A stretch of 64,000 bases of DNA, from the NCBI RefSeq assembly GCF_056712565.1, contig NZ_CM160072.1. One strand, 5' to 3'. Each line of letters starts with the position of its first letter. The stretch's first letter is position 1. This document shows, piece after piece, positions 1 to 24,000 of the stretch. Position numbers: made by a program.

Positions 1-3000
1 TAGCCTGCGCCAGATGACCACGGTATTCAAAGCCCAGGCCATACCAGCGTAGCACCAGCGTCACAATTGCGGCGACGCTGAAGGCCATAGCCCAGTTAAG
101 AAGTTGCGGCGCGTCTCCCCGTAACAGCGCATCAATGATCGGATAAAGACAGGCAAAGGCGATCCCCTGCATGAATGCCGCCAGCAACAGCGCCAGCATA
201 CTGCGTCGCAGCATCCTGGCCTGACTGCCAACGCTGGAGATAAGCTGGCGCCAGATGACGCGCCAGGCCAGGTTATCCGCAGGATTATTGTCTTTCATTT
301 TCCACCACCTCTTCCTGTGTTCCACCCGGCACCCAATGCTGCGCCTGCTGATAGTGTTGCCAGAGCCGTTGATACAGGCCGCCCTGCGCCAACAGTTGCG
401 TATGGTTCCCCATTTCCCTGAGTTGTCCGTCGGAAAACAGCAATATCACATCGGCCTGAGTCACCATTGAGAGACGATGCGCGACCATGATGACCGTCCG
501 GCCACGCATGGCCGCCGCGAGCGCCTTGATAAGCGCCGCTTCGTTTTCCGGGTCAGCAAACGCCGTCGCCTCATCGAGCACCAGGATGGGGCGATCCTGC
601 AAAAGCGCCCGGGCGATAGTAATGCGCTGCCGCTGGCCGCCGGAGAGAAATACCCCACGTTCCCCGACTCGAGTGTTGTAACCTTCTGGCAGAGCGCTAA
701 TAAAATCATGGGCCTGCGCCACTCTGGCCGCCGCTATAACCGCCTCCAGCGGCGTATCCGGCGCGCCCAGACGAATGTTATTGGCTATCGTGTCGGCAAA
801 AAGGAAGTTGTCCTGAAACACAAACGAGAGTTGCTTCATCAGGGTGTCCGTCTGCATATCACGCAGATCCACGCCGCCAATACGGATATGGCCTTTGTCC
901 GGGTCGGCGTAACGCAGCAGCAAGCGCGCCACGGTGCTTTTTCCGGCGCCGCTTGGCCCGACCAGCGCCACAATTTGCCCGGCAGGCACATGAAAGCTCA
1001 CCTCCTGCAACGCGGCGCCAGTACGCGCTTGCGGATAATGAAAGCTCACCTGCTCAAAGGTAATGCTCGCCTCTTGCGGCTGCTGGTCAGACTGCGGCAG
1101 CGATAACTCCGGCATCGCGAGAACCTGATAAATACGCTGAATGCTTAAACGCGTTTGCGCGACCAGGTTATTGAGCATCATCATTGGCATTACGGCTTCG
1201 GCCATTCCGCTGCCCAGCAGTAAAACGGCCACCCACGCGATAAAATCGAAACTGCCATAGTGCAACAGGCCGTATCCCGACCAGATCAGGACAAACAGGG
1301 TCGGGAGAGGATTCAGAATCGAGAAGGAAAAACGCGCTGAAAAACCGGCTTTGCGATACCAGGTTTTGAGCACATCGACCCACTCTTCAAGGGCGCGTTG
1401 ATAGCGCAAAAAACTGGTGCTGCCGCTATCAAACGTTCTCACCACGGGCATGGCCTGCACGAACTCAATAACCGCCGCGCTAACCTGCTCGCGCGCCTTA
1501 TGATAACGCTGAGCCATATTTTCCGAACGCTGGCGGGCGAGCACGAGAACAACCGATCCAAACGCCAGTACCCCCAGCGTCGCGATTGCCAGCCGCCAGT
1601 CCAGCCAGAACAAGATAACGATTGTCGCCAGCGGCATGATGATCGCGCGGGCATAGAGCGGCGTGCTGTCGGCCACAAAAATATGTAACGACTTCACGTC
1701 ATCCAGCATCACTTTCGCCACTGACCCGCTGCCCATTTGCTGTAACACGCCAGGCGGAAGCTGCAATGCTTTACGGGCTAACCTGCTGCGCAGAATGTTC
1801 TCCAGATGAAAAGCCGCGTAATGAGAGGTGTTGAACGCCTGTAAGCGCAGAACAAAAGTTAAGACCACGCAGCCGATCACGCCGCCCAGCGGCCAGGCCG
1901 GAATAGCGTCAGGCGTCGCGCGAATGTCACGCAGGCTCCACGCCAGAAAAAGGAGCGCCCCCAGGCTGGTTAATGCCGCCAGCCCCGCCAGCGCCATAGC
2001 TAAAATAACCTTCCTGCGAACCGGTGTAATCACCTGCCAGAGAGGAAATCGGGACAGCGATTCAGTATTGGATGATTGAGATGACATGGGAGTAACTGAA
2101 TTTCCTGATGAATTTTTACGGACGCCAAAAACGACAATTCAGGGTGGCGTTCTGAGAATTAATGTGAATAATAACCATTATCAATAACTCATCTACCCCA
2201 TTCGGTTCTATTTATACCCGCATTGGTCTAAGCCACAGGGAGATAACCAGGTCATGACGGAGTCACCGCAAACGCAATCTGAAATCTCTATTCACCAGTT
2301 GGTGGTCGGGAAACCTGCAAACGATGGCAATATTCCTGCTCAGTGTGAACTGCTGCGCTGTTCGTTGCAGGAAGGTATGGATATTTTGCTCTGGAGGGGC
2401 CATTTTGCGCGGCCAGAGACGTTGCAGCTACACGACGATCTGGGCAGGATTAACTTCTCGTGCATCCTGGAAGGCACATCGCGCTTTGCGATTCAGGGAC
2501 TCCGGCGCCACACCGACTGGGAGCTTGCGCGCAATCGCCATTACATTACCCATACGCCAGACTGTCGCGGCAGCGCCTCCTATTGTGGCCGATTCGAGAG
2601 CATTACCCTCTCCTTCAGCCCTGAAACCCTCGCGCTGTGGGTGCCGGATATTAGCGCGGTCATTAAGAATAAGATCGACTCCCACTGCTGTTGCCAGCAG
2701 CAGCGTTGTAATGCTGAAACCCACTTAACGGCTCAGGCCTTGCGTCACGCGCTGATGCGCATGCACGGCGGCTTCAGTCATGAACAAAAGCCGTCGACGC
2801 TATGGTTGCAGGGGCAAAGTCTGGTCATGCTCAGCCTGGTGCTGGATGAACATCGCGAAGACGCCAGTTGCCTCTCCTGCCACTTCAACCCGATGGAACG
2901 CCAGAAACTGCTGCGGGCGAAGGATCTGCTGCTGGCTGATCTGACGCAAGCGCCGGGCGTCGCGGAGCTGGCCAGAGAGTCCGGTCTGAGCGTTCTCAAA

Positions 3001-21000: not shown

Positions 21001-24000
21001 CCTTTGAATCTCTGATTGAACAGTATCCCTTACCCATTGCCGAACAGTTGCGCCACTGGGCGGCCCGTTATGCCTCGCGAATTGCCGTCGTTGATGCAAA
21101 GGGGTCGTTAACCTACAGCGCGCTTGATGCACAAGTTGACGAACTTGCCGCAGGTCTGTCATCACTGGGTTTGCGTTCGGGGGAGCATGTAATTGTGCAG
21201 CTTCCCAACGACAACGCGTTTGTTACCCTGCTGTTCGCCTTGTTAAGACTGGGCGTTATCCCCGTGCTGGCGATGCCCTCGCAACGGGCGCTGGATATCG
21301 ACGCGCTGATTGAGCTGGCGCAACCCGTCGCTTACGTTATTCACGGGGAAAACCACGCAGAGCTGGCCCGACAGATGGCGCACAAACACGCCTGCTTGCG
21401 TCATGTTCTGGTCGCTGGAGAGACCGTGAGCGACGATTTTACGCCGCTCTTCTCCCTTCACGGTGAGCGACAGGCATGGCCGCAGCCTGATGTTTCCGCC
21501 ACCGCGTTGTTGTTGCTCTCAGGCGGCACAACCGGCACGCCCAAACTCATCCCGCGCCGACATGCCGACTATAGCTATAACTTCAGCGCTTCTGCTGAAC
21601 TGTGCGGCATCAGCCAACAGAGCGTGTATCTCGCCGTCCTCCCGGTGGCGCATAACTTTCCGCTGGCCTGCCCCGGTATTCTGGGAACGCTTGCCTGCGG
21701 CGGAAAAGTGGTGCTGACCGACAGCGCCAGCTGTGATGAGGTGATGCCTTTAATCGCGCAGGAAAGAGTGACTCACGTCGCCCTGGTTCCGGCGCTGGCG
21801 CAATTATGGGTGCAGGCCAGGGAGTGGGAAGACAGCGACCTTTCGTCGCTGCGCGTCATTCAGGCAGGCGGCGCCCGGCTCGACCCGACGCTTGCTGAGC
21901 AGGTTATCGCCACCTTTGACTGTACCCTGCAACAGGTTTTCGGTATGGCGGAAGGCCTGCTCTGTTTTACCCGGCTGGACGATCCGCATGCCACCATTCT
22001 CCACAGCCAGGGGCGCCCGTTGTCCCCTCTGGATGAAATCCGCATCGTTGATCAAGACGAGAACGACGTCGCGCCGGGCGAAACCGGGCAATTGTTAACG
22101 CGCGGCCCTTATACCATTTCGGGCTATTACCGCGCCCCTGCCCACAATGCGCAGGCCTTTACCGCGCAAGGGTTTTACCGCACAGGCGACAATGTCAGGC
22201 TGGATGAGGTGGGGAACCTGCACGTTGAGGGACGCATAAAAGAGCAGATCAACCGCGCCGGAGAAAAAATAGCCGCGGCTGAAGTGGAATCGGCACTGCT
22301 GCGTTTAGCGGAAGTGCAAGATTGCGCGGTGGTCGCCGCGCCGGACACGCTGCTTGGCGAGCGGATTTGCGCGTTTATCATCGCGCAGCAGGTGCCAACT
22401 GACTATCAGCAGTTGCGTCAACAACTGACCCGTATGGGGCTCAGCGCGTGGAAAATTCCTGACCAAATCGAGTTTCTGGACCACTGGCCGCTCACCGCCG
22501 TCGGCAAGATAGACAAAAAACGCCTGACGGCTCTCGCCGTCGACCGTTATCGCCATTCTGCCCAATAAGCGCAAACCGACCCGAAACAGGTTGAAATAAA
22601 CCCGTTTCGGGTAGCACCACTATTAGAAATAGTTATCATTTTCAATTCACCATTGTCGGTATTTTTGGCGTTTCGCCGTCTTACAGGGACTCACAACAAT
22701 GAAAATGACACGGCTTTATCCTCTGGCCTTGGGGGGATTATTGCTCCCCGCCATTGCTAATGCCCAGACTTCACAGCAAGACGAAAGCACGCTGGTGGTT
22801 ACCGCCAGTAAACAATCTTCCCGCTCGGCATCAGCCAACAACGTCTCATCTACTGTTGTCAGCGCGCCGGAATTAAGCGACGCCGGCGTCACCGCCAGCG
22901 ACAAACTCCCCAGAGTCTTGCCCGGGCTCAATATTGAAAATAGCGGCAACATGCTTTTTTCGACGATCTCGCTACGCGGCGTCTCTTCAGCGCAGGACTT
23001 CTATAACCCCGCCGTCACCCTGTATGTCGATGGCGTCCCTCAGCTTTCCACCAACACCATCCAGGCGCTTACCGATGTGCAAAGCGTGGAGTTGCTGCGA
23101 GGCCCACAGGGAACGTTATATGGCAAAAGCGCTCAGGGCGGGATCATCAACATCGTCACCCAGCAGCCGGACAGCACGCCGCGCGGCTATATTGAAGGCG
23201 GCGTCAGTAGCCGCGACAGTTATCGAAGTAAGTTCAACCTGAGCGGCCCCATTCAGGATGGCCTGCTGTACGGCAGCGTCACCCTGTTACGCCAGGTTGA
23301 TGACGGCGACATGATTAACCCCGCGACGGGAAGCGATGACTTAGGCGGCACCCGCGCCAGCATAGGGAATGTGAAACTGCGTCTGGCGCCGGACGATCAG
23401 CCCTGGGAAATGGGCTTTGCCGCCTCACGCGAATGTACCCGCGCCACCCAGGATGCCTATGTGGGATGGAATGATATTAAGGGCCGTAAGCTGTCGATCA
23501 GCGATGGTTCACCAGACCCGTACATGCGGCGCTGCACTGACAGCCAGACCCTGAGTGGGAAATACACCACCGATGACTGGGTTTTCAACCTGATCAGCGC
23601 CTGGCAGCAGCAGCATTATTCGCGCACCTTCCCTTCCGGTTCGTTAATCGTCAATATGCCTCAGCGCTGGAATCAGGATGTGCAGGAGCTGCGCGCCGCA
23701 ACCCTGGGCGATGCGCGTACCGTTGATATGGTGTTTGGGCTGTACCGGCAGAACACCCGCGAGAAGTTAAATTCAGCCTACGACATGCCGACAATGCCTT
23801 ATTTAAGCAGTACCGGCTATACCACCGCTGAAACGCTGGCCGCATACAGTGACCTGACCTGGCATTTAACCGATCGTTTTGATATCGGCGGCGGCGTGCG
23901 CTTCTCGCATGATAAATCCAGTACACAATATCACGGCAGCATGCTCGGCAACCCGTTTGGCGACCAGGGTAAGAGCAATGACGATCAGGTGCTCGGGCAG

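Follow-up and report, generated by a model that had tools for sequence, protein, structure and literature searches.

Probable YbtA operators of paired, phased half-sites beside Fur boxes at three yersiniabactin promoters of an Escherichia coli high-pathogenicity island

In the yersiniabactin locus the promoters of irp2 and fyuA and the divergent promoters of irp6 (ybtP) and ybtA contain 'repeated sequences' (RS) that are bound by YbtA; irp2, fyuA and irp6 are activated, and ybtA is self-repressed (PMC5634559). RS are described as YbtA binding sites adjoining Fur boxes in several papers (PMC5634559, PMC8725597, PMC11225919, PMC8805033), which cite Fetherston 1996 and Anisimov 2005, and 'YbtA RS' and Fur boxes have been drawn in the operon leaders (PMC8725597). 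Two YbtA sites were placed in the 5' leader of ybtA, where negative autoregulation was found (PMC8805033), and Fur was shown by electrophoretic mobility shift assay (EMSA) to bind the ybtA and irp2 promoters (PMC11225919). The YbtA operator system is already described: it was known from work of 1996-2005, and figures of recent papers on E. coli and Salmonella show it. Here we analysed the YbtA operators in a stretch of 64,000 nucleotides (the window) from contig NZ_CM160072.1 of the assembly GCF_056712565.1. The locus in the window is the Yersinia high-pathogenicity island (HPI, ybt locus) as carried by E. coli; of 5426 complete E. coli genomes, 2265 contain its stretch 2088-3404 at an identity of at least 99%.

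Activator sites of the AraC/XylS family adjoin or overlap the -35 hexamer, and their classical half-sites are asymmetric. The sites in the window resemble those of this family (araI1-I2 of AraC and the sites of RhaS, XylS and MelR) in having two half-sites that face the same side of the helix at a distance of approx. 21 bp; the proximal half-site would also lie by a weak -35, the contact to which is inferred for YbtA. The regulators are alike in a C-terminal double helix-turn-helix (HTH) domain and an N-terminal ligand/dimerisation domain. The YbtA sites differ in that the half-site is a short dyad, and in that the strong pairs of the HPI also form a perfect palindrome with 12-bp arms. PchR of the pyochelin system of Pseudomonas aeruginosa is a homologous, siderophore-responsive regulator of AraC type belonging to a thiazoline siderophore cluster; its boxes can be likened to those of YbtA by description only, and one plasmid annotation labels YbtA 'Regulatory protein PchR'. 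Michel and colleagues reportedly found in 2005 that the PchR box is repeated in the promoters of biosynthesis, receptor and regulator genes, in combination with Fur control. From the published HPI RS operators the sites analysed here show no substantive difference; locus, promoters and regulator are the same. Confirmation of the sites alone therefore changes nothing in the field. Mildly new are a consensus across genera, the extension to beta-proteobacterial clusters, and the conservation of phased half-sites rather than of a palindrome.

With a probability of about 0.93, three sites in the window are cis-acting operators that belong to YbtA, an AraC-family regulator whose gene lies at 2254-3213. 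This reading is carried by the presence and uniqueness of the sites, their orientation and common geometry, their co-conservation with the regulator and their match to the published RS positions. YbtA binding, yersiniabactin-dependent activation, autorepression, and Fur binding and repression are taken from the literature. The operators and their Fur boxes are as follows; the matrix scores are those of the matrix from six foreign modules described below.

3296-3331, plus strand: irp2 YbtA operator, matrix score 37.9, rank 1 in the window; distal half-site ACCCGAAACGGGC (3296-3308), spacer ATAAATAA, proximal half-site ACCCGTTTCGGGT (3317-3329), TAG (3329-3331).
3341-3359: Fur box of the irp2 promoter, GTTAATAATTATTATTCTC, 15/19 to the consensus on the minus strand.
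22579-22614, plus strand: fyuA YbtA operator, matrix score 35.4, rank 2 in the window; distal half-site ACCCGAAACAGGT (22579-22591), proximal half-site ACCCGTTTCGGGT (22600-22612), TAG (22612-22614).
22625-22643: Fur box at fyuA, reading GAAAATGATAACTATTTCT on the minus strand (13/19); its register agrees with that of the irp2 and ybtP/ybtA boxes.
2193-2228, minus strand: ybtP-oriented YbtA operator within the ybtA 5' leader, matrix score 28.1, rank 3; distal half-site GACCAATGCGGGT (2228-2216), proximal half-site AACCGAATGGGGT (2207-2195), TAG (2195-2193).
2164-2182: Fur box common to the divergent ybtA and ybtP promoters, GTGAATAATAACCATTATC, 15/19.

The genes to which these modules were assigned are listed below, and the cognate regulator gene lies in cis with all three operators.

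285-2087 as the longest open reading frame (ORF), 285-1997 in the PGAP annotation, minus strand: ybtP, first gene of ybtPQXS, assigned to module 2164-2228.
2254-3213, plus strand: ybtA, AraC-family regulator, annotated as yersiniabactin transcriptional regulator YbtA (WP_000970688.1).
3404-9511, plus strand: irp2.
3404-22568, plus strand: irp2-irp1-ybtU-ybtT-ybtE biosynthetic operon, assigned to module 3296-3359.
22699-24720, plus strand: fyuA receptor gene, assigned to module 22579-22643.

A first-pass annotation of the same stretch had reported three copies of a palindromic motif of approx. 25 bp, resembling a YbtA box, at the ybtP/ybtA, irp2 and fyuA promoters. Reading the sequence confirmed all three at their positions. 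The copies at irp2 and fyuA, ACCCGAAACGGGCATAAATAAACCCGTTTCGGGTAGCA (3296-3333) and ACCCGAAACAGGTTGAAATAAACCCGTTTCGGGTAGCA (22579-22616), are identical at 34 of 38 bases, and with a degenerate 38-mer pattern allowing up to 3 mismatches these two were the sole matches in 64 kb, against 0 in 100 shuffles. They are direct repeats 19.3 kb apart and flank the whole biosynthetic operon. When the bare 11-mer CCCGAAACGGG was searched with up to 2 mismatches, no enrichment was detected in the window (23 matches, 18.6 expected), so that the signal resides in the paired, phased arrangement. Pairs of half-sites (ACCCGNNNCGGG, up to 2 mismatches each) spaced 20-22 bp apart were found in the window at the three ybt promoters only, and the possibility that the motif might be equally frequent elsewhere in the window was answered by the lack of any other occurrence.

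The third copy was said to be degenerate and inverted, and it is both: on the minus strand (2191-2228) it matches the two strong 38-mers at 25/38 and 23/38 positions, on the plus strand at 20/38 and 19/38. A match of this order could be a chance resemblance, with only the two strong copies functional; the repeat search detected no repeat there, and the score of 48 was attained somewhere in 2% of shuffled windows. We nevertheless consider chance exceedingly unlikely. Among approx. 128,000 window positions the site is the top non-self match (the runner-up scored 44), and it falls inside the 166-bp ybtP/ybtA intergenic region, a known fourth promoter region, in the correct orientation and at the same distance from a Fur box. 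It also ranks third with matrices trained on foreign sequences only, has orthologous ybtP-oriented counterparts in Enterobacter sp. and Pectobacterium sp., and coincides with published RS1 and RS2, all of which is given below. The location of the third site, which had been set at 2196-2220, was correct; its end was not, as the site runs to 2228 and stopping at 2220 truncates the second of the repeats.

For the alignment each of the three promoters was oriented towards its activated operon, the ybtP side being reverse-complemented. One collinear module was common to all of them, and the sole difference was a 1-nt indel between the repeats and the Fur box. It begins with the distal 13-mer and continues through 8 bp of A-rich spacer to the proximal 13-mer, the last bases of which are GGGT; an AG that completes TAG, 9-10 bp and the Fur box follow. 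In six aligned modules, which include those of Ralstonia and Burkholderia described below, the start-to-start spacing of the half-sites is 21 bp, so that the pair measures 34 bp, or 37 bp with the TAG. The unit is accordingly approx. 34-37 bp long, two 13-bp half-sites 21 bp apart plus TAG, and not approx. 25 bp as first described. The gap between TAG and Fur box is 9-12 bp (irp2 9, fyuA 10, ybtP 10, the promoter of the Ralstonia nonribosomal peptide synthetase (NRPS) genes 12). The twelve half-sites of the six modules gave the consensus aCCCGaTtCGGGT; all twelve share C3, G11 and G12, and 11 of 12 agree at C4 and at G10. A single half-site is by itself a small dyad, CCCG-N3-CGGG. Distances from operator to start codon are 73 bp for irp2 and 85 bp for fyuA, within the range of 40-90 bp upstream of operon starts that had been proposed; ybtP (start at 2087) with 106 bp and ybtA with 26 bp fall outside it.

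Fur boxes were scored as matches out of 19 to the consensus GATAATGATAATCATTATC. All three promoters have one, not two of the three as had been noted. Nine window positions scored at least 14/19, where 1.2 were expected. Two matches, equal in quality to those at the ybt promoters, lie inside coding sequence, at 46827-46845 in clbN (15/19) and at 29002-29020 in a glycosyltransferase family 9 gene (14/19), and may be due to chance.

The long perfect palindrome, with 12-bp arms, is confined to the two strong HPI copies, whose inverted identity is 12/13. In the other four of the six modules the inverted identity is 7-9/13 and the direct identity 8-10/13. At the third copy the repeat search and the fold test gave no inverted repeat and no hairpin (z = +0.4 and -1.0). 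As inverted identity is no better than direct identity in these four modules and the third copy has no hairpin, it is the phased half-sites that are conserved and not the palindrome. From the aligned sequences, then, the conserved feature is the half-site pair phased at 21 bp together with TAG, rather than a 25-bp palindrome; 'palindromic' holds for the two strong copies, and neither for the third site nor as the defining property. The correction is that the conserved determinant consists of phased half-sites and GGGTAG.

The two strong copies do fold stably, with -21.7 kcal/mol (z = -6.0) at irp2 and -20.2 kcal/mol (z = -5.4) at fyuA. The palindromes could therefore be RNA or DNA hairpins that serve as 3'-end stabilisers or terminators of ybtA and ybtE, instead of or besides being protein sites. 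The fyuA copy starts 11 bp past the ybtE stop codon, and no other terminator-like element lies on the plus strand between ybtE and fyuA. We regard this explanation as very unlikely. Neither stem is followed by a T-run on the plus strand, where the sequence reads AGCATTCA and AGCACCAC, and at neither palindrome was a rho-independent terminator called on the plus strand. The ybtA gene moreover has a stronger terminator-like hairpin of its own:

3244-3278, plus strand: terminator-like hairpin of ybtA, 15-bp stem, -29.3 kcal/mol, z = -6.8, followed by TTCTTT.

This hairpin, 31 bp past the ybtA stop codon and distinct from the operator, is probably the ybtA terminator. An analogous hairpin stands directly after the regulator gene in Ralstonia (20963-20996 of that stretch), and its arms resemble RS half-sites. 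Since the third copy has no hairpin potential, and the other four modules lack long-range symmetry while their position relative to the Fur box is conserved, hairpin formation is not the common function and at most an extra role of the two HPI copies. A related possibility is that the palindrome is not the target of YbtA at all. The target would be the 13-bp half-site at 21-bp phase, across a clade that reaches beta-proteobacterial micacocidin-type clusters, and the palindrome and the near-identity of the HPI copies would be specific to the lineage and have a second role. We consider this combination rather unlikely. If it were true, the palindrome could form a 3'-end hairpin in the RNA of ybtA and of ybtE. 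Alternatively, recombination could have in it a built-in substrate, with irp2-ybtE being deleted and 'cheater' islands of receptor and regulator remaining. The latter role is suggested by a hybrid irp2/fyuA module between ybtA and fyuA in Klebsiella indica (see below).

To return to the operator reading, the module was also found beyond the HPI. A tblastn search against plasmids gave YbtA homologues of 51% identity on Ralstonia solanacearum megaplasmids and of 46% identity on a Burkholderia gladioli plasmid. Both lie within yersiniabactin/micacocidin-like clusters of NRPS and polyketide synthase genes, and both clusters carry the same module. In B. gladioli it stands in the interval that separates the regulator gene from the gene of the TonB-dependent receptor, as Fur box ATAATGATATCGATTCTCATT, ACCCGAACCAGGG, 8 bp and ACCCGAATCGGG; Ralstonia has a comparable module at the equivalent position. 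A further Ralstonia module, TTCCGATGCGGGC-AAAAACAA-GGCCGATCCGGGTAG-AGCACAGA-AAATGATAATGATTATCATTT, is located just downstream of the regulator gene, which is the position of the irp2 site in the HPI. The six modules align nearly gap-free, and GGGTAG is invariant in all six. The Ralstonia and Burkholderia modules thus share with those of the HPI the half-site consensus, the 21-bp phasing, GGGTAG, the Fur-box distance and the placement relative to the regulator gene. They differ in that their halves are not long-range palindromes, that the spacer is GC-rich in the receptor-side modules, and that the divergent partner gene encodes a TonB-dependent receptor, whereas it encodes an ATP-binding cassette (ABC) transporter in the HPI.

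One genome per species was then scanned with a composite pattern, which is met by 5 of the 6 modules and for which we calculated approx. 0.03 chance matches. The scan returned nine stretches, all of them ybt loci of Enterobacterales; the pattern did not find the Ralstonia and Burkholderia representatives again, so that this taxonomic breadth is a lower bound. Diverged loci among the nine are those of Enterobacter sp. (YbtA 53% identical), Pectobacterium sp. (YbtA 56%) and Serratia marcescens (FyuA 76%), and four further modules in diverged loci fit the same 37-bp register. The ybtP/ybtA intergenic regions of Enterobacter sp. and Pectobacterium sp. each contain a ybtP-oriented module with a Fur box (scores 26.0 and 36.4). 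Across the loci of Ralstonia, Burkholderia, Enterobacter, Pectobacterium and Serratia the module precedes the NRPS operon or the gene of the receptor, and it also occupies the region where the regulator gene diverges from that of the transporter or receptor. When the three Ralstonia/Burkholderia modules alone were used to build a matrix, it ranked the E. coli sites 1-3 (26.0, 25.1 and 21.5), with the next unrelated position at 15.4. With the matrix from six foreign modules (window mean -26.9, standard deviation 8.5) the sites again took ranks 1-3, in the predicted orientation, with 37.9, 35.4 and 28.1, and the next unrelated position scored 13.3. Across these loci the DNA-binding domain of the regulator is 68-82% identical and the N-terminal domain 34-43%, a difference that fits a conserved operator. 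The C-terminus of YbtA from the window matched a generic profile of the AraC-type HTH domain; in a search of NCBIfam this generic model alone matched, and no YbtA-specific model scored above its cut-off.

Among E. coli genomes the motif never occurs apart from the island (2266 have it, compared with 2267 that have ybtA), and the median is two places per genome. These counts bear on a further explanation, that the repeats are a small mobile or repetitive extragenic element of the repetitive extragenic palindromic (REP), enterobacterial repetitive intergenic consensus (ERIC) or miniature inverted-repeat transposable element (MITE) kind, with no regulatory role. The copies are near-identical and intergenic, and the region attracts insertions, namely a 201-bp element in Salmonella pESI and an ERIC element in Y. 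enterocolitica (PMC11225919). A dispersed element is hard to reconcile with a median of exactly two places in HPI-positive E. coli genomes and none in HPI-negative ones, with the lack of other copies in the 64-kb window, and with the recurrence of the same module, at the same places in the promoters, where the proteins of the loci share an identity of only approx. 45-56%. With copy number and gene context against it, the dispersed-repeat reading was dropped, its probability being practically negligible.

To compare the sites with the published repeats, we mapped the reporter-truncation primers of PMC5634559, which match the window exactly. They bracket RS3 at 2096-2144, the Fur box at 2145-2185, RS1 at 2186-2212 and RS2 at 2213-2253. 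The RS1 bracket holds ACCCCATTCGGT (2195-2206) and the RS2 bracket ACCCGCATTGGT (2216-2227), and the Fur box lies between RS3 and RS1, in agreement with the published order. The ybtP-oriented operator coincides with published RS1 and RS2 and is the same thing, not merely a relative; the comparison with published YbtA repeats that had been proposed for the motif thus came out in its favour in the ybtA/ybtP region. The third site as first delimited corresponds to RS1 and to 5 bp at the beginning of RS2; what was listed as one site is two repeats in the literature, and RS3 was omitted. For the irp2 and fyuA sites the agreement with the literature was checked at the level of the promoter. The control by YbtA plus Fur that had been proposed for the locus stands as well, as RS and Fur boxes are published for exactly these promoters (PMC5634559, PMC11225919). 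The 19-mer Fur box of irp2 at 3341-3359 was named as a Fur site and gel-shifted by Fur, and for a Fur box of Salmonella pESI, near-identical to 2164-2182 of the window, Fur EMSA was reported (PMC11225919). In the Salmonella plasmid copy the ybtA transcription start was mapped by RACE (rapid amplification of cDNA ends) to 5 bp past the Fur box (PMC11225919); transferred to the window, this start is at approx. 2188.

The 201-bp insertion in Salmonella pESI was placed in one of the RS (PMC11225919). In the Salmonella Infantis pESI-like plasmid (approx. 1266-1466 of that stretch) we found that it splits the distal half-site between ACCC and GCATTGGT, at the position of 2219/2220 in the window. It leaves TAG, Fur box and proximal half-site intact. 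The CsrA-binding motifs of PMC8805033 are present exactly in the window, CCACAGGGAGAT upstream of ybtA (2233-2244) and TTACAGGGACTC upstream of fyuA (22681-22692); the ybtA motif is in the leader, 5 bp downstream of the operator.

The RS3 bracket of 2096-2144 follows from the sequence that is in the reporter p3RS and missing from p2RS+. The best candidate for RS3, though a weak one, would be CACCCTGAATTGTCG at 2132-2146, read from the minus strand; it overlaps the first two bases of the p2RS+ primer. An inverted repeat, ACGCCA-N17-TGGCGT, was observed at 2122-2150, inside or overlapping the RS3 bracket, and the p2RS+ primer begins at its right arm (2145).

Dimer occupancy, -35 contact and a roadblock are deduced from the anatomy of the module and from the behaviour of the AraC/XylS family. 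A simple sigma-70 scan at the three promoters detected no canonical promoter, which is consistent with activator-dependent promoters. Reading the sequence, we found a -10-like TATTAT or TATCAT inside each Fur box, and 15-16 bp upstream of it a poor -35-like TAGCAT, TAGCAC or TAGATG that starts at the last base of the proximal half-site. The proximal half-site would thus adjoin or overlap the -35 of the activated promoter. We propose that a YbtA dimer, with yersiniabactin as co-activator, would occupy the two half-sites, approx. two helical turns apart on one face of the helix. At the proximal half-site, adjoining the poor -35, YbtA could recruit RNA polymerase in a class II-type activation, and Fe-Fur on the Fur box would cover the -10. 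Transcription would then need low iron and siderophore-loaded YbtA together. In the divergent region the orientation of the module towards ybtP places it at approx. +5 to +41 of the ybtA transcript. By activating ybtP from there YbtA would at once block ybtA, and such a block in the ybtA leader would explain the published autorepression.

Several points weigh against the operator reading or parts of it. The base-level agreement of the irp2 and fyuA sites with the literature rests on secondary descriptions. Loss of YbtA in Salmonella pESI shifted the expression of all three operons only approx. two-fold (Salmonella pESI paper), and activity of the ybtA promoter was seen in a strain without YbtA, for which another factor on the same region was suggested (PMC5634559). 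For RS3, no half-site-like sequence above background was found in 1990-2170 (best 2.3 bits, with a half-site matrix that mixed two registers 1 nt apart), and in a three-way alignment with Enterobacter and Pectobacterium there was no conserved block beyond the Fur box and none for RS3. The '-35 contact' is deduced from the positions of the Fur box and the -10-like element. A half-site that is itself a dyad (CCCG-N3-CGGG) is also odd for monomers of the AraC family, which bind asymmetric sites.

The practical gain of the analysis is the exact coordinates and strand of three operators and their Fur boxes in the window. With the cross-genus consensus, YbtA-type regulons can be annotated in clusters like those of yersiniabactin and micacocidin.

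A different arrangement was seen in K. indica TOUT106 (7225-7440 of that stretch), where ybtA is directly followed by fyuA with a single module between them. This module is a hybrid: the distal repeat and spacer are of irp2 type (CGGGCATAAATAA), and from the Fur box onward it is of fyuA type. Judged by this junction, a deletion of the 19.3-kb irp2-ybtE segment by recombination between the near-identical direct-repeat operators is probable; it would leave receptor, transporter and regulator. Together with the split distal repeat of pESI, the probable operator-to-operator deletion may be relevant to siderophore cheating and to the evolution of the island.

The start of ybtP is ambiguous, as the PGAP start at 1997 gives 570 aa and the ATG of the longest ORF at 2087 gives 600 aa. 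The sequence upstream of 1997 is conserved with Enterobacter and Pectobacterium and both have an ATG near the position of 2087, which favours the longer protein. On the left the locus continues with one further gene:

Left part of the window, incomplete at the window edge: ybtQ.

Just to the right of fyuA (25368-28175) lies a gene with an inverse-autotransporter beta-domain, and after it a pseudogene with Ig-like domains that is frameshifted and truncated. The right part of the window also contains core genes and three tRNA-Asn genes (34088-34163, 36497-36572 and 38321-38396). The last of these is followed by a gene for a tyrosine recombinase (38558-39829) and by the colibactin (pks) island, which begins in the window and runs from clbS and clbQ through clbM and onward. 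In this strain the HPI and pks are approx. 14 kb apart.

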